A stretch of DNA of 43,316 bases from a virus. Of the stretch, positions 974 to 43,316 are shown one piece after another. Location of the stretch: IMG/VR virus record IMGVR_UViG_3300016672_000064; one strand, written 5' to 3'. The translations under genes and the position numbers were made by a program. The notes under the pieces are model-generated. The model saw only the letters and a program-made list of their open reading frames with translations. It ran no database searches and was not told the DNA's origin. Numbering within the stretch: the stretch's first letter is position 1; each line of letters begins with the position of its first letter.

Positions 974-1931
974 GCAGGCGCAAGTCCTTGATGCCGGTGA
1001 TCCGGCTCAAGGTCAGCACGTCGACCTTGCGCGCCAGCCGGGTGATCGCGGTGGCCCGCGTGTCGTGGATCGTCAGGTCGCCGATCATGAGCTGCGCCCG
1101 GTACTTGCGCCACAATGCGTCGACCCGCTTGGGCGTCGTGTCGAAGAACCGCCCGCCCTCCAGCCCCCGGGCCTGCAGCACCTCAAGCAGCCGCACCACC
1201 TGGCGCTGCATCGGCACCCGCCGAGGCTCGCCCGTCACGTACTGCATTTTGTGCCCGACCGTGGCCACCCTGGTCTGCAGGTTCACGCTGTCCGCCGACA
1301 ACCCCAGCACCTCCTGCGTGCGCATCGCGGTGCGCAGCGCCACCAGGATGAGGTAGGCAACCTCCTGGCTTTTCGTCGTCGGCGCTCGGCCCGTGACGTA
1401 CCCCAACCGGCGCACCACCTGCTTGGTGGTTGACCAGCCCCAGGTCGCCGTGCGCGGCGGGTTCTCCCTGGGCTTCTCCAGCTTGGTCAAGGGGCTGGCC
1501 CCCACGTAGGGGCCGAGCTCATGCATGGCCGCGTGGTAGACCGCGCTGAACAGGTTGATGTCACGCTGCACCGTCGAGCCGCTGACCACGCGCAGCCGGG
1601 CGTCGCGCCACTCGGCCCAATCCGCTGTTGTGGTCTCGCTCATGACCTTGGCCGCCAGGCGGGGGAAGTCACGTTTCAAGGCCTCGACGCGCAGCGCCTC
1701 CTTGTCGCCGCCTTCCTTCTTGCTGCTGACCCGCTTGACGTAAACATCAAGAACCTCGCCCAGGGTCTTGCGGGGGAACTGCCCCCGCTTGCCGGCCAGG
1801 ATCTCAGCCTCGCGGGCGGTCGCCCACTCCTGCGCCTCGCGCTTGGTGTCGAAGGTCTCCGACTCACGCACGCCCATCTTGTCGACATGGGCCCGGTGCT
1901 TGCCGCCCTTGGTTTTCTCGAAGTACGCCAT
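921..1931 (-). CDS. int: Tyrosine integrase (site-specific recombinase)
   Basis: Start taken at MAYFEKTKGG (ATG 1931). The C-terminal catalytic region has ..RTAMRTQE.., HKMQY, IHDTRATAIT (HxxR) and LLNERYY. The track ORF extension to 2120 runs through attP and is rejected. Confidence 0.9.
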   Translation of the reverse strand: MAYFEKTKGGKHRAHVDKMGVRESETFDTKREAQEWATAREAEILAGKRGQFPRKTLGEVLDVYVKRVSSKKEGGDKEALRVEALKRDFPRLAAKVMSETTTADWAEWRDARLRVVSGSTVQRDINLFSAVYHAAMHELGPYVGASPLTKLEKPRENPPRTATWGWSTTKQVVRRLGYVTGRAPTTKSQEVAYLILVALRTAMRTQEVLGLSADSVNLQTRVATVGHKMQYVTGEPRRVPMQRQVVRLLEVLQARGLEGGRFFDTTPKRVDALWRKYRAQLMIGDLTIHDTRATAITRLARKVDVLTLSRITGIKDLRLLNERYYREQDEEIAARL

Positions 1932-1957
1932 GCAACCCTTGGCCCTCCTGGCCAAGG

Positions 1958-1990
1958 CGCGGGGGATCGCGCGGGGGATTGGCGGGGGCA
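1958..1990. repeat. attP arm-type repeats (P arm): CGCGGGGGAT x2 plus a degenerate third copy
   Basis: cgcgggggat at 1958-1967 and 1970-1979; ggcgggggca at 1981-1990. Confidence 0.6.
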
Positions 1991-2094
1991 GCGGGGCAAA
2001 GTGTAGCCCGGAACAACCCGGAAACGGGTAGATGTGAACGCGCAAAACCCTGCAAACTAGGGGTCTAACCCGCAGGCAGGTAGCTTGCCGCCCG

Positions 2095-2118
2095 TGGTGC
2101 CCCGAACCGGACTCGAAC
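2095..2118 (-). other. attP core: 3'-terminal fragment of a tRNA gene (half T-loop, T-stem, acceptor stem, CCA)
   Basis: The minus strand reads (G)TTCGAGTCCGGTTCGGGGCACCA, i.e. T-loop TTCGAGT, stem CCGGT, acceptor TCGGGGC, discriminator A, CCA. Upstream sequence cannot form the complementary T-stem or the rest of a cloverleaf. Confidence 0.7.
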
Positions 2119-2147
2119 ACCCTTTAGCCATCGGGCTCAGTCGCCCG

Positions 2148-2179
2148 CGCGGGGGATAGACGGGGGGTCCGCGGGGGTT
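2148..2179. repeat. attP arm-type repeats (P' arm)
   Basis: cgcgggggat at 2148-2157, acggggggtc at 2160-2169, ccgcgggggtt at 2169-2179. Same G5 motif as the P arm. Confidence 0.55.
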
Positions 2180-2592
2180 TACGCCCGCCCCTTGACCTTT
2201 TCGAAAGTGCGCAGGCCACCCAGGCCCAGCATGCCGGTCAGCAGCACCATCAGGGTCTCGGTGTCAATGCTCGGCAAGTCGGGCACGTCGGCGCCGCAGA
2301 CCTTGACCGCCCAGGGCAGCAGCGGGCGCAGCACCAGCTGGTAGCCCAGGCCGAGCACGCAGACCCAGCCGACCGCCGGGCGCCAGCCGCCTCGGAAAAG
2401 GTCGGTGCCTGCCTCCACCTTGTTGACCTCCAGCTGGGCCAAGGCCAGCCGGGTGTCGGCGTCGAGCACCGCCAGCTCGCCCCGCTGGGCCAACTCCAGG
2501 GCCTTGAGCTTGGCGTCTGCTGCAGCCGTGGCGTCCGGCAGCACCTTGTCGAGCACGCCGGTGATGAGGGGCAGGAATTGCAACATGGTCAC
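2179..2592 (-). CDS. Holin-like membrane protein (3-TM, GTA-type holin family)
   Basis: N-terminal amphipathic segment, then NKVEAGTDLFRGGWRPAVGWVCVLGLGY and further hydrophobic helices. GTGA overlap with the endolysin stop (alternative ATG at 2586). Last gene of the late operon. Confidence 0.65.
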   Translation of the reverse strand: MTMLQFLPLITGVLDKVLPDATAAADAKLKALELAQRGELAVLDADTRLALAQLEVNKVEAGTDLFRGGWRPAVGWVCVLGLGYQLVLRPLLPWAVKVCGADVPDLPSIDTETLMVLLTGMLGLGGLRTFEKVKGRA

Positions 2593-3056
2593 GCCTCTTT
2601 CAAGTTGGCCGCGATGCGCTTGGCCCAGCCGCGGCCGAACGCGGGCCAGGCTTTCAGGTCAGCCATGAGGTCAAGCCGGTGGCCGTTGAATCGGGCGACC
2701 AGGCGGGGCGCAGGCATCGAGTTGATGGCCTGCAAAGTCTTGGGGCCCAGGATGCCGTCGGGCGTTGCGTCGACCGCGCGCTGCAGGCACTTGACCGCAG
2801 CCACCACGCCGGAGTTGACCGCCATGTCGAACAGGTCGAACTTGATGCCGTCGGGCACAGCGTCGCATCCAGCCGGGCCCCAATAGTCTTGCAGGTAGAG
2901 CACCTTGGCGCGTGCCAGTGTCATCCCCTTGATGTTCTCCAGGGGGTAGGCGCGCTTGGACACCCCGAACTTCGTCTCGCCGCCCGGGTCGTCTTTTCCT
3001 TCGGTGTACCCGCCTTCGTGGCCGATCAATCGCTCGAACGCTTGGTCGAAGTTCAT
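2589..3056 (-). CDS. Endolysin, GH108 lysozyme with C-terminal PG_binding_3 domain
   Basis: LIGHEGGYTEGKDDPGGETKFG is the GH108 signature. The C-terminal part resembles a peptidoglycan-binding domain. Confidence 0.85.
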   Translation of the reverse strand: MNFDQAFERLIGHEGGYTEGKDDPGGETKFGVSKRAYPLENIKGMTLARAKVLYLQDYWGPAGCDAVPDGIKFDLFDMAVNSGVVAAVKCLQRAVDATPDGILGPKTLQAINSMPAPRLVARFNGHRLDLMADLKAWPAFGRGWAKRIAANLKEA

Positions 3057-3316
3057 CGCGGCAACCTCATCAGGTGTTCAAACGCCCAGGTCAGCAGGCC
3101 GCCGAACGTGGCGCCCGCGCCCCCGAGCATCATCATGGCGCGCCAGCCCCCGCGCGCCTCGGTCAGCGTGGTGGCCACTGTGTCCAGCTTGCTGGCCAGC
3201 AGCTCGATGGCCTTGGTCAGCCGCTCGATCTCCTTTGCCTGGCCCTCGACCTTGGTCTCCAGCACCGCGATGGCGACGTGGGCCTGGCTCAGTTGTTCCT
3301 GGTGCAATTCGCTCAC
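3053..3316 (-). CDS. Small coiled-coil protein with C-terminal TM helix (lysis-cassette membrane protein, possible holin/antiholin or spanin-like)
   Basis: Heptad-like N-terminus, then GGWRAMMMLGGAGATFGGLLTWAF. Translationally coupled (GTGA upstream, ATGA downstream). Confidence 0.5.
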   Translation of the reverse strand: MSELHQEQLSQAHVAIAVLETKVEGQAKEIERLTKAIELLASKLDTVATTLTEARGGWRAMMMLGGAGATFGGLLTWAFEHLMRLPR

Positions 3317-3702
3317 AGATTGATCTCCGATGCGGTGCGGAAAAGGTCATCCACCTCGGCATCTGCCCAGCCGAGGGCCAGGGCCACCGACATCAGCAGC
3401 AGACTGCGCCGCTCCCAGGTGCCGGCCTCGTGCCATGCCAGCAGCGCCAGCGGGTCAACGTCGGCGCGCTCAAACCAAGCCGCGGCCACCCCCAACTGGC
3501 CTGCCGCCAGCAGTGCGGCGCGGGCCTGAAATCGGGTCACGCTCCGCGGCACAGGCGCTTGTGCGGGCACCGGCGCTTGAGCGCCGGGCGGCACCACCTG
3601 CCCTTCGTCGATCAACACCACGGCGCCATCAACCATGTGGGCCGCCGTGCCAATCAGCCGAATGCTGCCGGTCACAATGTCCAGCTCCATGCGCTGCATC
3701 AC
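3313..3702 (-). CDS. Hypothetical protein downstream of the tail fibre (possible fibre assembly/chaperone)
   Basis: Coupled ORF (GTGATG junction with the tail-fibre stop). No recognisable motif; function is guessed from position only. Confidence 0.5.
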   Translation of the reverse strand: MMQRMELDIVTGSIRLIGTAAHMVDGAVVLIDEGQVVPPGAQAPVPAQAPVPRSVTRFQARAALLAAGQLGVAAAWFERADVDPLALLAWHEAGTWERRSLLLMSVALALGWADAEVDDLFRTASEINL

Positions 3703-4865
3703 ACGCCCTCAATGAGCAGCGAGACAGAGCCGCCGTCGAACGTGTCAACGCCGCCGACGGTGGTCAACCGCACGCGCGTCAAATCCGCGCCGATGTCAAC
3801 CGATCCACCCATCCACCACACTCGGCGCGAATCGGACTGCCCGCCATTGCCCCGCGCAACCCAGGTGTTTGTCGCGCCAACACGCTCAAGCACAACGATG
3901 CCGCTGCGCACATAACCTGCGGACGTGTCCCCCGCCAGGTCAAAGCCGGTGCCCATCAGCGCAACAGCAGGCGCCAGGCCGTCGAGCGCCGAAGCCGCCG
4001 AGCCCGCGTAGCCGCTCGCAACAATCGACGCCGCTGTGCCGAGCCGCACGACAACGGGCGATGACCCGCTGGTGCTCACGCCCGACAAGATCAACGTCAA
4101 ACGACGCGCCCACGACGGAATGGGTGTGTAGTCCACAGCCACGCCGCTGGTGGTCGGCTGCGACCCTGCATCGACGTACCGCATGCGCGCCGCAGCAACA
4201 GCATCCAATTGCTGCTTGGGCACCGCATGCAGCGCGCTCGCTGCATCGCCCGGCAACACCAGCGCGCCAGTCATCGTGCCGCCGCTGCGTTGCAGGGCAC
4301 CCGCGCTCGCGGCGTTCGCTGTGTCGATCGCGTCCTGCGCGGCGTCGACCAAGCCCTCGGCCACGCTTGCCGCGGCCGCAGCGTCCGCCGCAGAACTGGC
4401 CGCCGTGCTCGCTGCGGTGGTGATCGTGTTCACCAGCTCGTCGGGGCTGACCAGCCCGCTGAATCCCACCTTGACCGACCGGCTCACTTCCTCGGCGAGC
4501 TGCTGCACCACGATGGTCACTCGGTCCAGTGCGTCGTTGAGCACGCGCGGATAGAACCGCCCCAGGTTCGTGAAGTTGGCCGGCTGTGTCGACGCGACTT
4601 TCGAGCCGATGACCAACGTGAACGCCGACGACAGCGGGGTGCCGATCCAGTTGACCGTGCCGCCCGGGTTCGTGTCCTGGTTGCTGTTCAGCGTGACGCT
4701 GTAGTGCGTCCCCCGCGTGAGCTCCAGTTCGGCAGCCGTGGCGATCTCGCCGCGCACCACCTTGACGTCGTCAACCGCGAACACCTTGAAGGTGAAGGGG
4801 AACGCCACGGTCACACCGTTGCCGGTGAACGGGCCAGCTTTGCGTGTGGTGGTGCTGATCGACAT
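3699..4865 (-). CDS. Tail fibre protein
   Basis: N-terminus RKAGPFTGNGVTVAFPFTFKVF..., an Ala/Ser-rich shaft, and the GGTMTGALVLPGD...AVPKQQLD motif common in phage fibres. Confidence 0.75.
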   Translation of the reverse strand: MSISTTTRKAGPFTGNGVTVAFPFTFKVFAVDDVKVVRGEIATAAELELTRGTHYSVTLNSNQDTNPGGTVNWIGTPLSSAFTLVIGSKVASTQPANFTNLGRFYPRVLNDALDRVTIVVQQLAEEVSRSVKVGFSGLVSPDELVNTITTAASTAASSAADAAAAASVAEGLVDAAQDAIDTANAASAGALQRSGGTMTGALVLPGDAASALHAVPKQQLDAVAAARMRYVDAGSQPTTSGVAVDYTPIPSWARRLTLILSGVSTSGSSPVVVRLGTAASIVASGYAGSAASALDGLAPAVALMGTGFDLAGDTSAGYVRSGIVVLERVGATNTWVARGNGGQSDSRRVWWMGGSVDIGADLTRVRLTTVGGVDTFDGGSVSLLIEGV

Positions 4866-26882: not shown

Positions 26883-27597
26883 GCTTCCGTGCGGCCGCGA
26901 TCATGGCGGCCACGTTCTCGGTGACGTCGTGCTCGACCTTGTCCTTGAACATGGCCAGATGTCGCCCGATGAGCTCGATGGCCTTGTCCTGGTCGCGCAT
27001 GAGCACCTGCACGCCGTCCTTGGTCTGCTTCACGCCGGCGTAAAGGCGACGAGCGGGGCCGGACAGGTGGCGCGTGTCGGCTAGGTGGATGCGTTCGACA
27101 CCCTCGCCAAAGCACTCAGGACAGTCCTCATGGGGCTCGCGGCGCGGGTCGTAGCCCACACCCCCAGCCTCGTCGAAAACGCGCGGCTGGTGGCGTTCTG
27201 GGTCTTTGCGCTGGCGCTCCAGCTCGGCAGCCTCGTGGGCCGCTCGATCGCGCTCCATTTCGGCCGGGGTCCGCTGGTAGCCGAACAGGTTGCCATGGCA
27301 GTGCCGGCAGCACCCGCGGCGGTGCTGGATGAGCTCGTTGGGGTCGGCGATCGCCAGCTCGACCAGATGGCGCAGCACCTCGTTGGCTTCGAGCTTGAGC
27401 TCGCGGGCCCGCTCGTCCTGCAAGGCCTTGACCGCAGCCTGCACGTCAGGGTCTTGAAGCAGGCGCCACGCCTCGACATCCGCCTGCGATCGAGCGTAGC
27501 CCGCGCGGATGGCGGCCTGCGTCCCGTTCAAGTCCTTGAGGTACTCAAACACGAAGCGCTGACGACGAGGGGGCAGTGCACTTGCAAAACCTTGCAT
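26869..27597 (-). CDS. terS: Terminase small subunit (Terminase_2 family) with Cys-rich insert
   Basis: RQRFVFEYLKDLNGTQAAIRAGYARSQADVEAWRLL plus CCRHCHGN...CPECFGEG. ATG at 27597 follows element E (alternative GTG at 27606). Confidence 0.85.
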   Translation of the reverse strand: MQGFASALPPRRQRFVFEYLKDLNGTQAAIRAGYARSQADVEAWRLLQDPDVQAAVKALQDERARELKLEANEVLRHLVELAIADPNELIQHRRGCCRHCHGNLFGYQRTPAEMERDRAAHEAAELERQRKDPERHQPRVFDEAGGVGYDPRREPHEDCPECFGEGVERIHLADTRHLSGPARRLYAGVKQTKDGVQVLMRDQDKAIELIGRHLAMFKDKVEHDVTENVAAMIAAARKRAGG

Positions 27598-27638
27598 GCC
27601 CCGCACTGTGCCCAGCGGTCAAGGAGTCAGGGGCACGG
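27598..27638 (-). promoter_or_regulatory. Late-operon element copy E (first late promoter candidate)
   Basis: Box 1 (cCGTGCCCCTGAC) at 27626-27638, box 2 (ACAGTGCGG) at 27601-27609. Follows the terminator directly. Confidence 0.6.
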
Positions 27639-27642
27639 GCGA

Positions 27643-27666
27643 CAAAAAACCCGCCGGGGCGGGTTT
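27643..27666 (-). terminator. Rho-independent terminator (minus strand; hairpin symmetrical)
   Basis: Minus strand: AACCCGCC-CC-GGCGGGTT followed by TTTTTTG. Ends the 27686-28175 cassette. Confidence 0.8.
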
Positions 27667-27692
27667 CAGGTCAGGTCAGGTCAGGTCAGGTC
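27666..27692. repeat. Pentanucleotide microsatellite (TCAGG)5.4 (CCTGA on the minus strand)
   Basis: Five perfect tandem TCAGG units at 27666-27690 plus tc. The last unit contains the TGA stop of the 27686-27862 gene. Confidence 0.95.
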
Positions 27693-27862
27693 TTGGCCTT
27701 GTCGATTTGGTGCTCCAGCCATTCGGTGCCCAGCGTTTTGAGCTTGGCCCAGCGTGCGTCGTCGAGGCGGACAGAGCGCGGGGGCTTGAGCGTGGATGCC
27801 TTGCGCTCGATGGGCACGGGAGGGCGCCCTCTCGGGCGCTTGGTTGTCTCAGGCGGCGGCAT
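27686..27862 (-). CDS. Small basic protein with AT-hook-like RPRGRPP and ribbon-helix-helix-like C-terminus
   Basis: Start taken at MPPPETTKRPRGRPP (ATG 27862); ...RSVRLDDARWAKLKTLGTEWLEHQIDKA. No clear SD, so the start is uncertain. Confidence 0.5.
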   Translation of the reverse strand: MPPPETTKRPRGRPPVPIERKASTLKPPRSVRLDDARWAKLKTLGTEWLEHQIDKAKT

Positions 27863-27932
27863 GCTAGATGGTAATGGTGGTAATGGTGGGCTCCTGGGTT
27901 TCAATCCACGCCCCCGGAGGGGCGAATGCGGG

Positions 27933-28175
27933 TCAGGCGTACAGGCCAGTGTCACGGTCACGGAGCGTGACGCATGCGAGAGTCGTGCCCTCCCACATCA
28001 GGTTGTCGGCCTGCACTTGGCCATTGTCGTAGGCGTCCGCGACTTTGCGGGCGCCGTCCTCGGACGTGGCGGCTACGAGGATGCTGTTCACGCCGTCCCA
28101 CTCGGTTGCTGCGTCGGCCTGGGTCACCTCGCCTTCGGCGACGAGGTACAGAGCCAGTGTGTCGTGGTTGCTCAT
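27933..28175 (-). CDS. Acidic 80-aa hypothetical protein
   Basis: Good SD (AAGGAG, 7 nt) and ATG. Own sigma70-like promoter upstream. Confidence 0.65.
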   Translation of the reverse strand: MSNHDTLALYLVAEGEVTQADAATEWDGVNSILVAATSEDGARKVADAYDNGQVQADNLMWEGTTLACVTLRDRDTGLYA

Positions 28176-28225
28176 GGTGGATCTCCTTTGGGTTGCTGGC
28201 CAGCACCGTGCTGTCCATGGAAATT

Positions 28226-28254
28226 AATGTACTACGATTTAATCGCGTCGTCAA
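28226..28254 (-). promoter_or_regulatory. Sigma70-like promoter (minus strand) TTGACG-17-TACATT with an 11-bp palindrome in the spacer
   Basis: -35 at 28249-28254 and -10 at 28226-28231, in a locally AT-rich stretch. The spacer contains CGATTTAATCG. Confidence 0.6.
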
Positions 28255-28257
28255 CGG

Positions 28258-28497
28258 TTATTTTGTAACACGCGAAAACACCTCTCGCCACTCGGTCGCC
28301 AGCTGCCGCTTGTGGCCCAGGCAGATCCGCCGGGCTTGCGACTTCGACACGTCGAACATCTTGGCCAGCGTGCCCCAGCCCAGGCCCGTCTCGCGCATCG
28401 CCAGCATGCGGTCCACGTCGGCGTCGGTCAGCTTGGCCTGCGGATGCGATTCGCCGACCCTGCGGTTTTTCTCGTTCACGCCGACGACCAGTTTCAT
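28258..28497 (-). CDS. Small HTH DNA-binding protein (79 aa)
   Basis: GESHPQAKLTDADVDRMLAMRETGLGWGTLAKMFDVSKSQARRICLGHKR. Start at MKLVVG (ATG 28497). Confidence 0.65.
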   Translation of the reverse strand: MKLVVGVNEKNRRVGESHPQAKLTDADVDRMLAMRETGLGWGTLAKMFDVSKSQARRICLGHKRQLATEWREVFSRVTK

Positions 28498-28566
28498 GTC
28501 CGGCCCCCGATCGTGCAAAAACTTGCAGGTTCTTCCAGTGTGTTGTTTTTTGCGTGCTCCAACTCA

Positions 28567-28733
28567 GTTGAAGCAGAAGCACCCCGCCAGTGCTTCGTTT
28601 CAACCCCCCGCTGCTTCTGCTTCAAGCACACACCACCACTAGAAGTGGTGTGTGTTGCAGTTGAAGCAGTGAAGACAGCTGCGCCAAGCTTCAAATGCTC
28701 CAAATGAAGCAGGTTGAAGCAGGTTGAAGCAAC
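28567..28733. repeat. Array of TTGAAGCA(G) repeats (direct and inverted) with nested palindromes
   Basis: Direct copies at 28568, 28661, 28704 (aTGAAGCAG), 28714 and 28724. Inverted copies at 28612-28625 and 28687-28694. The 14-mer TTGAAGCAGAAGCA (28568-28581) is inverted at 28612-28625. Imperfect palindrome at 28626-28658. Confidence 0.9.
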
Positions 28734-28749
28734 CAAACCGCCGGGCCGC

Positions 28750-28777
28750 TTGACAGCGTTGCAACACTCCGCACAAT
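28750..28777 (+). promoter_or_regulatory. Sigma70-like promoter TTGACA-16-CACAAT ending 7 nt before the ATG at 28785
   Basis: -35 at 28750-28755 and -10 at 28772-28777. Only AGGGGGT separates the -10 from the start codon. Confidence 0.6.
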
Positions 28778-28784
28778 AGGGGGT

Positions 28785-29198
28785 ATGACGCAAGCAACTT
28801 TCACCAATTCCAAGGGCCGTGTTTTCGTCGCCTTCGAGACCGTGCCCCACACGCGCATCGACGGCAAGAAAACCATGCTTCAACGCTGGCGTGGAACATG
28901 CGCGCACCCCGGGTGCGCCGCTGTTTTCGTGGTCGTCACGCCTTTGACCGTTGGCAGCACCAAGGCCTTTGAGCGCAAGCACTGCGACGCCCACAAACTC
29001 AACTGGCAGCAGATCCAGGCCCTGGGCCGTGCCCACCAGGCAAGCCGGGGGGCGAACCGCAGCCGCGTCCTGAGCGACGCCGAGGTGGCCGAGATCCGCC
29101 GCCTGGCGGGCGAAGGGCTCAAGCCCGCGGACCTGGCCCTGGTGTACCCGGCCACGGCTGGCACGCTGCGCGAGATCATCGCGGGCCGACGTCGTTAG
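28785..29198 (+). CDS. Cys/His-motif protein with C-terminal HTH paralogous to the 28258-28497 product
   Basis: CAHPGC...HCDAH, then GANRSRVLSDAEVAEIRRLAGEGLKPADLALVYPATAGTLREIIAGRRR, which aligns with the neighbouring HTH protein. Confidence 0.65.
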   Translation: MTQATFTNSKGRVFVAFETVPHTRIDGKKTMLQRWRGTCAHPGCAAVFVVVTPLTVGSTKAFERKHCDAHKLNWQQIQALGRAHQASRGANRSRVLSDAEVAEIRRLAGEGLKPADLALVYPATAGTLREIIAGRRR

Positions 29199-29203
29199 GC
29201 ATC

Positions 29204-29770
29204 TCATGCGATCACCATCCCGCGGCAGCGCGCCGCAACATCGAGCAGCCAAGCCGCGAAATCAGGAGGGGTGTGCTCTCTCTCTGCCTTAGTAAGGAAC
29301 TTCGCGCCAGTGCCGTTTTTCTTCGGGCGCACAACAAACTCAGGCTTGCCCGGTCGGTGCGGCATAGGGGGCAACGCGCGAACGTCAACCCCGCAGATGT
29401 AGAGCCATGTCTTTTTCTCTGCCTTGTGGCCCCAGCGGTACTGGCAGACCTCGATCGAGTAGCCGCCCCACAAGTCAGCCGGCTCGCCGGGCTTGGGGAT
29501 GCCGGTCTCCTTCCAGAGCGAACTGTGCGCGGGGTGCTCAAGGACGCCGCCCCACACTTGGATCTGCCAGAGCGCCCACACGGCAAGGAACTTCTCGTCG
29601 GGCCGCGGCTTGGCAAACTGGCGAAACCGGCCCCAGGCTCGGCAAGGTGGGTGTGCGACACAAGGTGCTCCGCCAGGCCACAGCCTTGCATCACGCTGGG
29701 CGTCCCACGCATCGACCCCGGGCACCGTTTTGTAGGTGCTGTCCTCGCGGACAAACAGGGCCGCGATCAC
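29204..29770 (-). CDS. C5-cytosine-methyltransferase-like protein lacking the SAM-binding Gly loop
   Basis: Motif order HPPCRAWG (IV-like), GGVLEHP (VI-like), CQYRWGHKAEKKTWLY (VIII-like), LTKAEREHTPPDF (IX/X-like). No FxGxG. GTGA coupling to the primase-helicase gene. Confidence 0.45.
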   Translation of the reverse strand: MIAALFVREDSTYKTVPGVDAWDAQRDARLWPGGAPCVAHPPCRAWGRFRQFAKPRPDEKFLAVWALWQIQVWGGVLEHPAHSSLWKETGIPKPGEPADLWGGYSIEVCQYRWGHKAEKKTWLYICGVDVRALPPMPHRPGKPEFVVRPKKNGTGAKFLTKAEREHTPPDFAAWLLDVAARCRGMVIA

Positions 29771-31731
29771 TCAGCCACCCCCACCTTGTCACCGTCGACG
29801 CGCAGCACGTTGGCCGCGATCAACGCATCAACGGCCCGGCCCACGTGGGCCCGCCGCTGGTCTCGCTTTCCTTGCTCGGGAGGCACCATCTGCTGCACCG
29901 AGTGCTCCAGCAGATCGGTGATCAGCACCGCCCCCGCGTCGAGCCCCATCAAGTCGTGCAGCACGCGCACCACGAGCTTCTGCACGTTGCCCTTGGCCTC
30001 CCCCTTGCGCTGGTGCACCGGCACGTGCTCGGTGTGCTCCACCACGCAGCTGGTGACTTCGTCGCCGTCCTCGTCCAGGCCCAGCGTCACGGGCACCAGC
30101 TTGAAGGGCAACTCCTGCCCCTCGCTGCCGTCCTTGAGCTTGGAGACCCGCATGCTGCGGTGGTCGCCCTCGCGCAGCACCTCGATTTCGACGTCGGCCG
30201 CGGCCTTGAGCCCTGACCAGCCGCGCGCACCCTTGGCCGCGTCCTTGCCGCTGTGGTGCACCAGCAGGATGAGCGCGCCAGTGGCCTGGTGCAGGCGCCG
30301 GCAGTGGGCCAAGGCCTTGCCCATGTCCTCGCCGCTGTTCTCGTTGGCGCCCGGCGTGGACTGAGCCAGGGTGTCGACCACGATGAGACTGGCGCCACCC
30401 CACGCTGCGACCTGCTTGGCCACCAGCTTGTCGTCGTGCGCCAGCAGGTTCGGCGCGTCCGCGATCACGCCCAGGGGCAGCGTGTCGATGTCGACCTGGT
30501 GCTGCCGTGCGTAGGCTTCGAGGCGCAGCTGGAAGCCTGCCGCGCCCTCGGCCACGATGTAGACCACACGCGCGGTGTTGACCCGGTGGCCACGCCACTC
30601 AGACGCGCCACGGGCCACCGCCATGACCAGGTCGAGCACCGCGAAGGTCTTGCCCGCGCCCGACTCACCGTAGAGCACCGCAAGCGCGGCCTGGGGCAGG
30701 AAGCCCTTGACCAGCCAGCGCAGCGGCTCGCGGCGCGAGAACTCACCAGCCTGCAGCACCTGGAAGCGCTCGGGCTTCGGGATGTCAGGGGTGCCGCTCA
30801 GGTCTTCGAACTCGCTGATGTCGGGCAGGTCTGCCCCCTCGGCCCGGCCCCACGCCAGCAACGACCTGGCAGTGATCGGGTTGGCGGTGCGCTTGCCGAA
30901 CGACTCCCACTTGCCCAGCCCGTACTCGCGGCTGGTGTACTTGGGCGACTTGCGGCTCCACTCGTCCCAGAGCTCGAACCCCTGGCCATCGGTCTCGTGG
31001 TGGATGGCCATGCCGACGCCGGTCCAGCTCGGGCCCTCGCTCGCTTCATAGGGCAGATCATCCGAGGGGATGGCGTCCAGGCACTCCAGCAGGCCGCGCA
31101 CGCCCATGCCCACCTTGATGGTCGGCAGGCTGTCCTCGACCTTGGTGCGGTGCAGCCCCTGCCAGATCGCCAGCAGCTCAGGCGGCAACACCTGCGGCTC
31201 GGACCAGTGGCCCACCAGGTCGTCGCCATACTCCCAGCGGTAGGCCTCGCCGGTCTCTGGGTGGATCGAAGGGGGCAGCACGTCCTGCAGGGTCAGGCCA
31301 TCGGCGGTCGCGCAGCGGAATTCAAGGCCCGCCTCCTTGGTCAGCACCTTGGAGGCGATCGGGGCCACGCCATCGGGCAAGCGATAAAGCAGCTTGCCCC
31401 GGTTCGGGCGGCCCGACGAGATCCGCACGGCCAGCGGGTGGGCCAGCAAGGCATCGAGGTCGGCACCTCGCTCGGCCAGCCACTCGCGTGCTGTCGGGAT
31501 GTGGTCGAGGTCGAGCGTGCACAGGCGGGAGTAGGCCAGCGCCAGGCCGACGTTTTCACGCACCCGGCTGCACTGCTCGGGCTGGGCGATGCAGTTGGCG
31601 ATCTGGTTCCAGCCCTTGCCGCTGGGGCCTTTGGTGCCCTTGGCAATGGGCACCAGCACCCAGCCCCGGCCCACGTACTGGCGCGCCGCCAGCGACACGT
31701 CGACATTGGTGGAGGAGGGCGCCGCCATCAT
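29767..31731 (-). CDS. Bifunctional primase-polymerase (Prim-Pol) fused to RepA/DnaB-like AAA helicase
   Basis: N-terminus GWVLVPIAKGTKGP...TLDLDH (Prim-Pol). C-terminus Walker A GESGAGKT and Walker B LIVVDTLAQS. Confidence 0.85.
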   Translation of the reverse strand: MMAAPSSTNVDVSLAARQYVGRGWVLVPIAKGTKGPSGKGWNQIANCIAQPEQCSRVRENVGLALAYSRLCTLDLDHIPTAREWLAERGADLDALLAHPLAVRISSGRPNRGKLLYRLPDGVAPIASKVLTKEAGLEFRCATADGLTLQDVLPPSIHPETGEAYRWEYGDDLVGHWSEPQVLPPELLAIWQGLHRTKVEDSLPTIKVGMGVRGLLECLDAIPSDDLPYEASEGPSWTGVGMAIHHETDGQGFELWDEWSRKSPKYTSREYGLGKWESFGKRTANPITARSLLAWGRAEGADLPDISEFEDLSGTPDIPKPERFQVLQAGEFSRREPLRWLVKGFLPQAALAVLYGESGAGKTFAVLDLVMAVARGASEWRGHRVNTARVVYIVAEGAAGFQLRLEAYARQHQVDIDTLPLGVIADAPNLLAHDDKLVAKQVAAWGGASLIVVDTLAQSTPGANENSGEDMGKALAHCRRLHQATGALILLVHHSGKDAAKGARGWSGLKAAADVEIEVLREGDHRSMRVSKLKDGSEGQELPFKLVPVTLGLDEDGDEVTSCVVEHTEHVPVHQRKGEAKGNVQKLVVRVLHDLMGLDAGAVLITDLLEHSVQQMVPPEQGKRDQRRAHVGRAVDALIAANVLRVDGDKVGVAE

Positions 31732-36642: not shown

Positions 36643-36708
36643 GAATCGACACCCCGGTGCGACCGAACGGTCGGCCTCGCAACCCGGCCGGGGGTGTCGA
36701 TTCAAAAA
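36638..36708. repeat. 18-bp perfect inverted repeat (arms 36638-36655 / 36691-36708) enclosing a second palindrome
   Basis: TTTTTGAATCGACACCCC ... GGGGTGTCGATTCAAAAA. The inner palindrome CGACCGAACGGTCG lies at 36660-36673. Confidence 0.9.
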
Positions 36709-36725
36709 CCCAGCACATCGACACC

Positions 36726-38819
36726 ATGCCTAAACTGTTCATCGACACCGAAACCTTCAGCCCCGTGCCCATCAAGGCCGGCGTGCACCGCTATGCGGAG
36801 GAGGTCGAGGTCATGCTGTTCGCCTGGGCCCTGGACGACGGGCCGGTGCAGGTGTGGGATGTGACCCGGGACGTGAGCCCCGCCGCCGAGCTTTGGGACG
36901 CGTTGTTCGATGACGCCACGGAGGTGTGGGCCCACAACAGCCATTTCGACCGCACGGTGCTGCGCCACGCATTGCGCGATCTTTGCCCGCCGCTGCACCG
37001 CTGGCGCGACACCATGGTCCAAGCCTACGCCCACAGCCTGCCCGGCTCGCTCGACATGCTGTGCCAGGTGCTCGGCGTCGCGCAGGACAAGGCCAAGGAC
37101 AAAGAGGGCAAGGCCCTGGTGCGCATGTTCTGCATGCCCGACTCCAAGGGCCAGCGCAACACCCGCGAGACCCACCCCGAGCAGTGGGCCAAGTTCATCA
37201 CCTACGCCGGCCAGGACATCGTCGCCATGCGCGAATGCCACCGGATCATGCCGAAGTGGAACTACCCGAACAACGCCGACGAGGTTGCACTCTGGCACCT
37301 TGACCAGCGCATCAACGACCGGGGCGTGGCCATCGACACCGACCTGGCCGAGGCCGCCGTGCGCGCGGTCAACCTGGCCCAGGCCAAGCTGGCGCAGCAG
37401 ACCGTCGACATGACAGGCGGACAGGTGCAGACCGCCACCCAGCGCGACGCCATGCTGGCCCACATCCTCGAAGCCTATGGCGTGGCCCTGCCCAACCTGC
37501 AGGCCAGCACCCTGGAGCGCCGCATCGCCGACCCGGATCTGCCTGAGCCGCTGCGCGAGCTGCTGGCCGTGCGCCTGCAAGCCAGCACCACCAGCACGTC
37601 GAAGTACCAGACCCTGATCCGCTCGACCAGCAGCGACGGGCGCCTGCGCGGCCTGCTGCAATTCAATGGTGCCGCTCGCACCGGCCGCTGGGCCGGCCGC
37701 TTGTTCCAACCCCAGAATTTACCGCGCCCAACCATGAAGGACGCCGCGATCGAGCTGGGCATCGAAGCGCTCAAGGCCGACGCCGCCGACCTGGTGTTCG
37801 ACAACGTCATGGCCTTGACCAGCAACACGATCCGGGGCTGCATCATCGCCCCGCCGGGCAAGAAGCTGGTGGTGGCCGACCTGTCCAACATCGAAGGCCG
37901 CGACCAGGCGTGGCTCGCCGGCGAGCAGTGGAAGCTCCAAGCCTTCTGCGACTTCGACGCAGGCACCGGCCACGATCTGTACGCCTTGGCTTACGCCAAG
38001 TCCTTCGGCGTCACGCCCGAGGAGGTCATGGCCAACAAGAAGACCGGCGACGGCTCCATGCGCCAGATCGGCAAGGTGCAGGAACTGGCCCTCGGGTACG
38101 AGGGCGGGGTCGGCGCGTTCGTCACTTTCGCCGCGGCCTACGGCATCGACCTCGAAGACCTGCCGACCAAGGTGCTGCCCGCAGCGGACACCGAACTGGT
38201 GGCCGAGGCCCGCGACTTTCTGGGCTGGCTGGTCGGCCAGAAGGGCCAAACCTTCGGCCTGTCCGACGATGCGTTCGTGGCCTGCGACGTGCTCAAACGC
38301 GCATGGCGCCGCGCCCACCCGGCTATCGCCAGCATGTGGCGCGACCTGCGCGACGCAGCGGTCAACGCCATCGAGTCGCCGGGCAAGACCTTTCAGGTGC
38401 GCATGCTCAAGCTGCGCCGCGACGGCAACTGGCTGCGCATCGTGCTGCCCAGCGGCCGGGCCCTGTGCTACCCCTCGCCCCGCGTCGACGAGGTCAACGG
38501 CAAGGACACCGTGACCTACATGGGCATCGACCAGTACACCCGCAAATGGTCGCGCCTCAAGACCTACGGGGGCAAGCTGTTCGAGAACGTGTGTCAAGCC
38601 GTGGCCCGCGATGTCATGGGCCACAACATGCCCGCCATCGAGGCCGCCAGCTACGAGATCGTGCTCACCGTGCACGACGAAGTGATCACCGAGGCGCAGG
38701 ACCGCGACGAGTTCAACGCCGAGCACCTGGCCAGCCTGCTGGCCGCAAACCCGCCCTGGGCCCCCGACATGCCGCTGGCGGCCGCGGGCTTCGAGACCTA
38801 CCGCTATAAGAAGGACTGA
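36726..38819 (+). CDS. Family A DNA polymerase with 3'-5' exonuclease domain
   Basis: Exo motifs FIDTETFS, HNSHFDRTVL and YAGQDIVA. Pol motifs VVADLSNIEGR, RQIGKVQELALGYEGG and LTVHDEV. ATG at 36726. Confidence 0.9.
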   Translation: MPKLFIDTETFSPVPIKAGVHRYAEEVEVMLFAWALDDGPVQVWDVTRDVSPAAELWDALFDDATEVWAHNSHFDRTVLRHALRDLCPPLHRWRDTMVQAYAHSLPGSLDMLCQVLGVAQDKAKDKEGKALVRMFCMPDSKGQRNTRETHPEQWAKFITYAGQDIVAMRECHRIMPKWNYPNNADEVALWHLDQRINDRGVAIDTDLAEAAVRAVNLAQAKLAQQTVDMTGGQVQTATQRDAMLAHILEAYGVALPNLQASTLERRIADPDLPEPLRELLAVRLQASTTSTSKYQTLIRSTSSDGRLRGLLQFNGAARTGRWAGRLFQPQNLPRPTMKDAAIELGIEALKADAADLVFDNVMALTSNTIRGCIIAPPGKKLVVADLSNIEGRDQAWLAGEQWKLQAFCDFDAGTGHDLYALAYAKSFGVTPEEVMANKKTGDGSMRQIGKVQELALGYEGGVGAFVTFAAAYGIDLEDLPTKVLPAADTELVAEARDFLGWLVGQKGQTFGLSDDAFVACDVLKRAWRRAHPAIASMWRDLRDAAVNAIESPGKTFQVRMLKLRRDGNWLRIVLPSGRALCYPSPRVDEVNGKDTVTYMGIDQYTRKWSRLKTYGGKLFENVCQAVARDVMGHNMPAIEAASYEIVLTVHDEVITEAQDRDEFNAEHLASLLAANPPWAPDMPLAAAGFETYRYKKD

Positions 38820-42156: not shown

Positions 42157-42352
42157 CCTCACCCTGTCCAAACGCGAGGCCGAGGTGCTGCAGCACATCG
42201 CCGACGGCAAGCTGTGCAAGCAGGTAGCCGCCGACCTCAACATCAGCGAGCGCACCGTGCAGACCCACATCGTCAACATCCGCAAGCGTCACCGCATTCA
42301 AGGCATCCCCGCCATGGTGGCCGCCGCCATCCGTCAGGGGCTGATCAAGTGA
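42149..42352 (+). CDS. Stand-alone LuxR/GerE-type HTH protein (sigma region-4-like)
   Basis: LSKREAEVLQHIADGKLCKQVAADLNISERTVQTHIVNIRKR is the LuxR_C signature. GTG start with AGGAGG 7 nt upstream. Confidence 0.8.
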   Translation: MSDLTLSKREAEVLQHIADGKLCKQVAADLNISERTVQTHIVNIRKRHRIQGIPAMVAAAIRQGLIK

Positions 42353-43316
42353 CCGCCAAACCCTTCACCCCCCGGCCCTACCAGAAGCTGATCATGGATC
42401 ACCAGCTCGACACCCCCCGCTGCGGCATTTGGGCCGGCATGGGCATGGGCAAGACATCGAGCACCCTGACCATGATCAACGACCTGCAGCTGCTCGAAGG
42501 CAACCCGGTGCTGGTGCTCGCCCCGCTGCGCGTGGCCACGTCGACCTGGCCCGACGAAGGCCGCAAGTGGCAGCACCTCACCGGCATCTCGATCATGCCG
42601 GTCACCGGCAGCCTGGAAGATCGCCGCCGCGCCCTGCGCTTCGACGCCGCCGTCTACACGACCAACTACGAACAGCTGCCCTGGCTGGTCGAGCACCTGG
42701 GCGACCGCTGGCCCTTCCGCACCGTCATCGCCGACGAGGCCACGCGCCTGAAATCCTTCCGAGGCTCGGAGGGCGAAAGCAAAACAGGCGCCAAGTTCAT
42801 CCGCCACAACGGCACCGGCAGCGTGCGGGCCCGCGCCTTGGCACAGATCGCGCACACCAAGGTCAAGCGCTTTGTGGAGCTCACCGGCACCCCCGCGCCC
42901 AACGGGCTGCAAGACCTTTGGGGGCAAGCCTGGTTTCTCGACGCGGGCCAGCGGCTCGGCCGCACCAATACCAGTTTTCGCCAGCGGTGGTTTCGCCCTG
43001 CCGACAACGGGTTCGGCACCGTGCCCCTGGCCCACGCCCAGGAGGAGATCCAGACCAAGCTGCGCGACCTGTGCCTGACCATCGAGGCAAAGGACTGGTT
43101 TGACCTGCGCGACCCGATCGTCACCAACGTCATGGTGGATCTTCCCGTCAAGGCCCGCCAGCTCTACCGGCAGTTCGAGAAAGAGATGTTCATGCAGCTG
43201 GGCGAGCACCAGGTCGAAGCGTTCAACGCAGCGGCCCGCACGGTCAAATGCCTGCAGCTCGCCAATGGCGCGGCCTACGTCGGCGAGGACAACAACGCCA
43301 AGCTGCAGGCCCTGGA
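42349..43316 (+). CDS. SNF2/DEAD-like helicase, N-terminal part (continues at nt 2 across the junction)
   Basis: GTGA-coupled GTG start. RPYQ, GMGMGKT (motif I), VIADEATRLK (motif II), ELTGTPAPNGLQDLW (motif III). No stop before the window end. Confidence 0.9.
   Translation, partial: MTAKPFTPRPYQKLIMDHQLDTPRCGIWAGMGMGKTSSTLTMINDLQLLEGNPVLVLAPLRVATSTWPDEGRKWQHLTGISIMPVTGSLEDRRRALRFDAAVYTTNYEQLPWLVEHLGDRWPFRTVIADEATRLKSFRGSEGESKTGAKFIRHNGTGSVRARALAQIAHTKVKRFVELTGTPAPNGLQDLWGQAWFLDAGQRLGRTNTSFRQRWFRPADNGFGTVPLAHAQEEIQTKLRDLCLTIEAKDWFDLRDPIVTNVMVDLPVKARQLYRQFEKEMFMQLGEHQVEAFNAAARTVKCLQLANGAAYVGEDNNAKLQAL
43296..43316. repeat. 21-nt terminal duplication (copy 2)
   Basis: Exact match to 1-21. The reading frame ...DNNAKLQALE continues as AKLQALESIIEEANG at the window start. 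Confidence 0.95.

Follow-up and report, generated by a model that had tools for sequence, protein, structure and literature searches.

The intergenic hub between two divergent genes of a 43.3-kb phage genome with 66% G+C is probably an iteron-type replication origin. The whole stretch of DNA analyzed (43,316 nucleotides) is referred to as the window. Judged by sequence comparison, the hub would serve a BPP-1-like temperate phage, with the putative origin joined to the control region of HTH79, a gene for a small HTH protein, as well as to the divergent gene's promoter. The short repeats of the hub are most simply explained as binding sites for the predicted winged helix of the phage's own replicase. 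A first-pass annotation of this DNA had left three readings of the region unranked, namely an iteron-type origin, a switch run by two paralogous HTH proteins and the template of a structured RNA; the comparative evidence given below favours the first. The same annotation held the region to be unexplained by the remaining modules of the genome; the Prim-Pol/helicase, whose gene is two genes away, does explain it.

The window is collinear with Bordetella phage BPP-1, with a matching gene order and many matching proteins (56% identity for the portal, 63% for the 720-aa ORF at 36657-38819 and 42% between HTH79 and Bbp27), and BPP-1 is the closest cultured relative that was found for it in sequence comparisons. 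The BPP-1 record begins at attP, and its coordinates are therefore uninformative on virion ends. The late and structural genes of the window are located on the minus strand from 921 to 28497, and this block includes a 2593-aa virion protein, the portal, the large terminase, a small terminase of the Terminase_2 family, a two-gene cassette and HTH79. Past the hub, the order is the 137-aa gene (+), a 188-aa gene (-), the 654-aa replicase gene (-), a cro-like gene (-), a cI-like gene and a rightward operon. The frame open at the 3' end of the window (42157 stop-to-stop; GTG at 42214 in the ORF list) continues in-frame into the frame at 2-457, so that the record is probably circular or permuted. 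No match among deposited phages was returned by a DNA search with the hub plus flanking sequence, and no tRNA genes were found. Boxes of the sequence GTGCCCCTGAC are present at five late-promoter sites away from the hub (4894, 15411, 20887, 25320 and 27626).

Table 1. Location of the hub, its sequence elements and the associated genes in the window.
Feature	Position	Strand	Description
HTH79 gene	28258..28497	-	79 aa; homologue of BPP-1 Bbp27, 42% identity; upstream of the small-terminase gene in relatives
Hub	28498..28784		287-bp intergenic gap between the divergent HTH79 gene (-) and 137-aa gene (+)
Conserved block before HTH79	28498..28560	-	Dyad GCAAAAACTTGC at 28515-28526; CACTGGAAGAAC at 28529-28540 (-); A-run
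Iteron block	28555..28731	both	Nine copies of TTGAAGCA or its one-mismatch variants, plus half-sites GAAGCA/TGCTTC
Second dyad	28568..28625		14-nt arms TTGAAGCAGAAGCA / TGCTTCTGCTTCAA, 100% complementary; encloses the short hairpin 28576-28596
Central palindrome/hairpin	28617..28669		Core stem 28627-28654; bracketed by inverted iterons TGCTTCAA (28618-28625) and TTGAAGCA (28661-28668)
Three tandem iterons	28704..28731	+	ATGAAGCAGG TTGAAGCAGG TTGAAGCA; starts 28704, 28714, 28724; exact 10-bp spacing
Predicted sigma-70-type promoter of the 137-aa gene	28750..28784 (boxes 28750-28777)	+	TTGACA-16-CACAAT; 10/12 matches, 0.1 expected
137-aa protein gene	28785..29198	+	Cys/His motif and C-terminal HTH paralogous to HTH79
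Predicted winged-helix DNA-binding domain	29770..29994	-	Replicase residues ~580-654
Replicase gene	29767..31731	-	654 aa; Prim-Pol, PriCT_2, RepA-like (AAA_25) helicase and C-terminal winged helix (Pfam; model)

Repeats and palindromes of the hub

Five exact copies of TTGAAGCA were located in the hub, at 28568, 28661, 28714 and 28724 on the plus strand and at 28618 on the minus strand, together with four copies that carry one mismatch, at 28704 (+), 28687 (-), 28555 (-) and 28696 (-). The seven copies reported in the first-pass annotation are all present, and the copies at 28555 and 28696, both of which read TTGGAGCA, are additional to them. An 8-mer repeated five times on both strands of 287 bp was obtained in none of 5000 dinucleotide shuffles, and one repeated four times in 9 of 5000. 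The hexamers GAAGCA/TGCTTC are likewise frequent, with nine of the 17 in the window falling inside the hub. Exact copies of TTGAAGCA elsewhere in the window are limited to singles at 27454 and 28876, and no second iteron cluster was found there. The phasing of the last three copies by 10 bp, as first proposed, is exact, and tandem motif copies at 9-10 bp also occur in the related loci L003, L009 and L004 and in BPP-1.

The inverted structures described earlier were recovered with small corrections. The 14-mer at 28568-28581 is perfectly inverted at 28612-28625 and provides the arms of the second dyad. The short hairpin GAAGCAC/GTGCTTC inside it does exist, but it had been placed one base too far to the right, and its arms are located at 28576-28582 and 28590-28596. 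The earlier repeat inventory as a whole thus lists only elements that exist, with one-base slips in two coordinates. The central palindrome was confirmed, and its arms at 28627-28636 and 28645-28654 are 100% complementary. Folding of the palindrome as DNA, with the inverted copies on either side included, gave -20.3 kcal/mol with a z of -5.2.

The G+C content is 54% in the hub versus 66% in the window, so the window's member has no classic A+T-rich unwinding element; no A+T-rich tract was found in the hub, which does hold the palindrome. A+T-rich centres are present in the hubs of L004 and BPP-1. Of the frames that reach into the hub, which the first-pass annotation held to contain no credible ORF, one passes the third-position G+C filter (28728-29198, stop-to-stop), and it is the upstream extension of the 137-aa gene frame.

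Conserved anatomy and changing motifs in related loci

Related loci were collected from homologues of HTH79 (L001-L016) and from homologues of the replicase (L017-L233), and the metagenome scan contributed just four of them. About 40 loci share the layout of the hub, with short repeats in two orientations, a G+C-rich hairpin that retains its pairing despite a changing sequence, and a conserved block that precedes a small HTH gene. The recurring elements are a clustered short motif that is found in direct and inverted orientation, with two or three of its copies arranged in tandem at 9-10 bp, a hairpin at the centre that is flanked by, or made from, inverted motif copies, and, in HTH79-bearing phages, the conserved block (dyad GCAA-N4-TTGC and CACTGGA) immediately before the HTH gene.

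The motif itself differs between loci. It is TTGAAGCA in the window, L001 and L003, TTGGAGCA in L009-L015, TGCACCA in L017, L019, L031, L097 and L230, TGCAACAC in L023, L025 and L027, CATCCCA in L008 and L232, GGGACGGAT in L004 and GTTTGCCTC in BPP-1. The BPP-1 motif is a 9-mer, and its two tandem and two inverted copies, twice per arm, form the arms of the stem-loop that had been predicted as an origin in BPP-1 (see below).

The sequence of the central hairpin varies as well, with its pairing kept. The stem begins with CACACACCAC in the window and with CCCCCACC in L001, where both arms have changed in a compensatory manner, and unrelated G+C-rich stems with preserved pairing are found in L003, L009, L230 and L231. 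Of 16 loci that were folded, 13 give z values from -4 to -10, and the weakest value is -2.0. Such strong predicted hairpins with compensatory changes would also be expected of a template for a structured non-coding RNA, a reading that we consider extremely improbable. No Rfam family was matched in a scan of the region (best match E 0.27, 21 bits versus a gathering score of 77), and no dedicated promoter-terminator pair was found. The structure is a symmetric palindrome that would form on both strands and is made of inverted copies of a short motif resembling a protein site. Moreover, the palindrome centre is itself palindromic in several relatives (TATA, CTATAG), which fits DNA symmetry better than an RNA loop. 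The central hairpin was also considered as an intrinsic terminator and ruled out, as it lacks a following T-run on both strands in all relatives.

Association of the repeats with the replicase and the flanking genes

The replicase domains were assigned from Pfam and structural models. The Prim-Pol domain (PF09250) was detected with E 5.7e-18, and residues 336-504 match RSF1010 RepA (1G8Y) with E 3.7e-6. A winged helix was predicted by modelling of the C-terminal 75 residues (block pLDDT 81-91), and the top Foldseek matches of this domain are mostly winged-helix domains or winged-helix-containing proteins, with weak E-values (8e-3 or worse). Residue Q625 (codon 29857-29859) directly follows a conserved KRD and takes the N-cap position of what is predicted to be the recognition helix.

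A repeat cluster, defined as one 7-mer with five or more copies in the interval from -60 to +350 around the stop codon of a gene of this helicase family, follows the replicase stop in 37% of 116 distinct loci (n=43) and in 1.2% of 1167 control windows, an enrichment with an odds ratio of 48 (p 1e-36). In most loci with such a cluster, no other part of the locus is as dense in repeats. No repeat cluster was found after the gene in about 45 loci with replicases of 40-45% identity. In the window, the hub lies about 1 kb from the replicase stop, with the 137-aa and 188-aa genes between; genes are also inserted after the replicase in L009-L015, L017, L019, L027 and L230, and in these loci the hub stays beside the HTH gene. 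Two integrated elements in Sphingomonadales, L101 (Erythrobacter MAG) and L102 (Sphingomonadaceae chromosome), carry TGCTTCA repeats and a hairpin directly 3' of the replicase gene. The next ORFs of L101 look like ordinary host genes by sequence, and the flank of L102 was covered over only a few hundred bases. The hub of every HTH79-bearing locus also lies upstream of the HTH79 operon, with two small genes between in L006-L008, and position alone therefore cannot separate an origin from a promoter.

The identity of the repeats changes along with Q625 and A628, two residues located where the predicted recognition helix begins. The residue after KRD is Q with TGCTTCA (window, L101, L102), N with a TCCA core (L009, L154, L156, L162), T with TGCA(C/A)C (L017, L019, L023, L025, L027, L031, L097, L165, L170, L171, L185), K with CATCCCA or ATCCCCCA (L008 and L007; general form (C)ATCCC(CC)A) and M with CGAGTAA (L160, L173, L179). 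This rule was used to predict four loci in advance, and all four agreed with it. Q is present, as expected, in the replicase encoded on the L003 contig, L231 combines Q with TG(C/T)TTCAA, and L232 combines K with six copies of CATCCCA. The fourth, L230, has a replicase 94.5% identical to that of the window which reads KRDTRRQH, and its repeat is TGCACCA in seven copies; the two loci constitute a natural near-isogenic pair with iterons TGCTTCA versus TGCACCA. Two exceptions were observed, L149 with Q and GCTACAC, and L176 with T and GCCGCCA. Part of the covariation could reflect descent, as related genomes share ancestry, but descent alone is insufficient as an explanation because the Q and T states recur in replicases that are merely 37-49% identical. 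A second, independent case of covariation is provided by the BPP-1 group, where the 9-mer occurs in six variants, each accompanied by its own version of one variable segment in the otherwise conserved C-terminus of Bbp29.

The replicase is distinguished in this respect from the HTH proteins encoded on either side of the hub. BLASTP of HTH79 against the 137-aa protein alone gave nothing significant (E 5.5); the proposal that their HTH modules are paralogous was borne out by a profile-profile match of the two families (probability 97%, E 6e-11, 48 columns). No relatives of the 137-aa protein were found with a single-sequence query against viral contigs. Homologues of 185-199 aa are encoded at the same divergent position in L003, L009, L017, L019 and L230, BPP-1 has at this position a gene, bbp28, that looks like a lipoprotein gene, and L004, L008 and L022 have no divergent gene.

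The repeats could in principle be operator or activator sites for the HTH79 and 137-aa genes, read by one or both of the paralogous HTH proteins. This would agree with the location of the hub upstream of both genes, the paralogy of the HTH modules, the conserved dyad adjoining the HTH79 start and the end of the phased triplet 19 bp before the -35 box of the 137-aa gene promoter; and since no sigma-70 promoter was found for HTH79, an activator-dependent promoter is plausible. We nevertheless regard such a transcriptional control region as unlikely to account for the repeats. The HTH79 recognition helix SKSQ(A/V)RRIC(L/S)G is near-identical in loci with five different repeats, and conversely four different HTH79 helices occur within the TGCACCA class. 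The window and L003 have the same repeats but different HTH helices in their proteins of the 137-aa family. Many relatives lack the divergent gene or have another gene in its place, as listed above, and 29 of the 43 clustered loci have the same kind of cluster and no detectable HTH79 homologue downstream. These observations speak against the switch by two HTH paralogues that had been suggested for the repeats, which covary with the replicase instead.

An operator role is conceivable only for the conserved block beside the HTH gene. The block may act as a promoter, an operator or a host-factor site, all of which were considered. It is kept wherever HTH79 follows directly, across loci with different iterons, and is near-identical in L230, where HTH79 is just 43% identical, so it is probably not an HTH79-specific operator; HTH79 as the reader of the conserved dyad, a candidate that we had considered, is weakened by the same conservation. 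Window-wide, the dyad GCAA-N(3-6)-TTGC is not enriched, with five found and five expected. A sigma-54 reading of CTGGAAGAACCTGCA was dropped by eye, the GG-GC spacing being 8 nt versus 10 nt in the consensus. On the other side of the hub, the promoter of the 137-aa gene ends 7 nt before the ATG, and the start of this gene is likely leaderless. Homology with L001 stops near 28722, and the promoter segment and the 137-aa gene are absent there, with a methylase gene in their place. From this comparison, the promoter and the 137-aa gene appear to be a swappable module. Two unrelated control elements thus abut the putative origin, the predicted sigma-70 promoter on the right and the conserved block on the left.

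A packaging site was also weighed, like P1 pac or SPP1 pacL/pacR, with a cleavage region between repeats that the small terminase would recognize. The hub lies upstream of the block of HTH79, small terminase and large terminase genes, and the large terminase shares about 47% identity with its counterparts in BIS08P22 and other Salmonella phages, which we take to be P22-like headful packagers. Repeat clusters flank a central region in P1 pac, and the layout of the hub is similar. However, TTGAAGCA is retained in L003 despite a small terminase of another family (Sf6_terminase versus Terminase_2 in the window), the same module is present in elements without a nearby terminase, and the repeats covary with the replicase. 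The occurrence of the same iterons with unrelated small terminases and in terminase-less elements makes a pac site very unlikely. As far as the sequences can tell, the repeats appear to track the replicase and not the flanking HTH genes or the terminase.

The covariation and linkage evidence applies equally to sites that the replicase would bind in a role other than initiation, such as autoregulation, handcuffing copy control or an enhancer like P4 crr, with the true origin elsewhere. A precedent is provided by P4, where crr is a second iteron site and not the origin. We consider such a role improbable for the hub, as no second iteron cluster is present in the window, and inverted iterons around a palindrome that could melt are the expected anatomy of an origin.

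Comparison with known origins and a possible mode of initiation

An origin served by the replicase would resemble several known systems. In the pri-rep-ori module of SaPI/PICI, the origin is located immediately 3' of the replicase gene, two iteron sets face a meltable centre and iteron specificity is matched to the initiator. The family-wide layout of iterons 3' of the replicase gene found here is similar, whereas the protein families and the hosts are different. In addition, two genes are inserted between the replicase gene and the hub of the window, and this hub has a G+C-rich palindrome instead of an A+T-rich spacer, though the centres of L004 and BPP-1 are A+T-rich.

The alpha protein of P4 unites primase, helicase and a C-terminal winged helix in one polypeptide and reads 8-bp iterons in direct and inverted orientation (PMC4234260). 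The window shares with P4 alpha/ori the single-polypeptide primase-helicase with a predicted C-terminal winged helix and the short iterons in two orientations. It differs in its primase, which is an archaeo-eukaryotic Prim-Pol and not a Toprim primase, in its helicase, which is RepA-like (AAA_25) and not of superfamily 3, in having one iteron site instead of two, and in the presence of a central hairpin that is conserved in structure and not in sequence. The passages on RSF1010 oriV in PMC4234260 and PMC8567376 describe iterons together with the hairpin-forming inverted repeats ssiA and ssiB, which are primase start sites. The helicase domain of the window's replicase is homologous to RepA of this IncQ plasmid (1G8Y); RepA, RepB' and the iteron-binding RepC are separate proteins in RSF1010, while primase, helicase and predicted DNA-binding domain are fused in the 654-aa replicase.

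Replication of pRN1 requires a stem-loop located 3' of its Prim-Pol/helicase gene, and for BPP-1/BIP-1 the same authors predicted a similar stem-loop origin at the 3' side of the replicase gene (Berkner et al. 2014, PMC4234260). Berkner et al. did not report short iterons beside the BIP-1 stem-loop (PMC4234260). A Prim-Pol replicase with a C-terminal winged helix (here a predicted one) and a hairpin 3' of its gene are common to pRN1 ORF904 and the window. The helicases of ORF904 and Bbp29 are of SF3 type, unlike the AAA_25/RSF1010 RepA-like helicase of the window, and the iterons, rather than the stem-loop of that account, are the main feature here. This in-silico suggestion is the one earlier origin proposal for phages of the BPP-1 group that was found in the literature.

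From these comparisons we infer binding, melting, priming and origin activity in the following way. The replicase, with its Prim-Pol, RepA-like hexameric helicase and winged helix, would bind the TTGAAGCA repeats via the winged helix. Because the iterons are inverted around the central palindrome and face each other across it, the loading of helicase rings would be bidirectional. Melting or hairpin extrusion would take place at the palindrome and in the surrounding hub DNA, which is relatively A+T-rich, and the Prim-Pol domain would prime on the exposed strands. Extrusion of a hairpin as template for the Prim-Pol would resemble ssiA/ssiB of RSF1010 and the stem-loop of pRN1.

The putative origin is located directly upstream of the small-HTH-gene operon in every BPP-1-like relative, which raises the possibility of a coupling between origin and late genes. 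If HTH79 were the DNA-binding partner of the five late promoters, loading of the replicase or extrusion of the palindrome could open or activate the HTH79 gene, for which no sigma-70 promoter was found, and so license late transcription only after the onset of replication. We hold such a replication-coupled switch to be unlikely; if true, it would be unlike switches of the Q or Ogr type.

The design is a familiar one and leaves the thinking on how such origins work unchanged. Specific to this case are the hub displaced from the replicase gene by other genes, the hairpin conserved in structure and not in sequence, the link to BPP-1 and the rule between residue and iteron. The hub provides a concrete and testable candidate origin for the temperate podophages of the BPP-1 group, and the same module of replicase, iterons and hairpin is distributed across phages and integrated elements of Alpha-, Beta- and Gammaproteobacteria. 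The residue-to-iteron rule offers a simple lead to origin specificity, which may guide work on origin incompatibility between co-infecting relatives and on orthogonal replicons.

The HTH gene and its neighbours

The gene encoding the 79-aa HTH protein (HTH79), which borders the candidate origin on its left, is accompanied by a segment with two small ORFs and a promoter of its own. This segment is missing in two relatives that are 97-99% identical (L001 and L002), where the small-terminase gene comes directly after HTH79, and it is therefore an inserted cassette. In some relatives (L006, L007, L008, and L012) two tandem paralogues, about 46-49% identical to the HTH79 of the window, are preceded by a gene for a protein of 223-232 aa. 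In L006, L007, and L012 they are followed by the gene for a very large LPD22-domain protein and not by a recognisable small terminase.

On the other side of the gap, proteins of the 137-aa family carry an N-terminal Cys/His motif (C39, C44, C67, and H70) that is joined to a C-terminal HTH by a charged linker. The copy of the window is missing about 50 residues of this linker. The place of the C5 DNA methylase found in L230 is taken in the window by a 188-aa phrog_12600 protein (29204-29770). At the 3' end of the window (42157-43316) a reading frame stays open and runs in frame into the one open at the 5' end (1-457). The sequence probably represents a complete genome, either circular or permuted.

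Features of the window and of related loci (L-numbers)
Feature	Locus and coordinates	Strand	Remark
Two small ORFs	window 27637-28279		own promoter at 28226-28254
GTGCCCCTGAC, five exact copies	window 4894, 15411, 20887, 25320, 27626	minus	
Block with A-run, CACTGGAAGAAC, and dyad GCAA-N4-TTGC	window 28498-28560	minus	ahead of the HTH gene in most relatives
137-aa protein family	window 28785-29198; L003 96-659; L009 4087-4644; L230 5936-6535		
Tandem HTH79 paralogues (two)	L008 4774-5243		also L006, L007, L012
514-aa C5 DNA methylase (PF00145)	L230 4377-5921		after replicase gene
Bbp29 replicase and iteron region	L144 (BPP-1) 1321-3885 and 4340-4460		also L084-L096
TGCTTCA iterons and hairpin	L101 2063-2230; L102 5416-5540		after Prim-Pol/helicase gene

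Boxes and dyads

All five GTGCCCCTGAC copies lie on the late-gene strand and none, as an exact match, in the 287-bp gap. L007, L008, and L016 also have this box, ahead of the operon that contains the HTH gene. The conserved block ahead of this gene is almost the same in L230, whose HTH protein is just 43% identical. Similar dyads were found on both sides of the iteron block in L001, L020, L021, L085, and BPP-1. In L040 and L050, which lack iterons, such dyads also lie 3' of the replicase gene. The block could act as a promoter, bind a host factor, or belong to the proposed origin.

Replicase and iterons in relatives

Among BPP-1-like phages, the C-terminal domain of the Bbp29 replicase is almost constant except for one short stretch close to the C-terminus, which covaries with the 9-mer iteron (AAACG followed by AGGC, ACGC, TCGC, TCCC, TTCC, or TCTC). 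Iterons of the window type, with a hairpin, follow the Prim-Pol/helicase gene in two integrated elements of Sphingomonadales. No terminase or HTH79 homologue was found within about 4 kb downstream, and these elements may be satellite-like or plasmid-like replicons.
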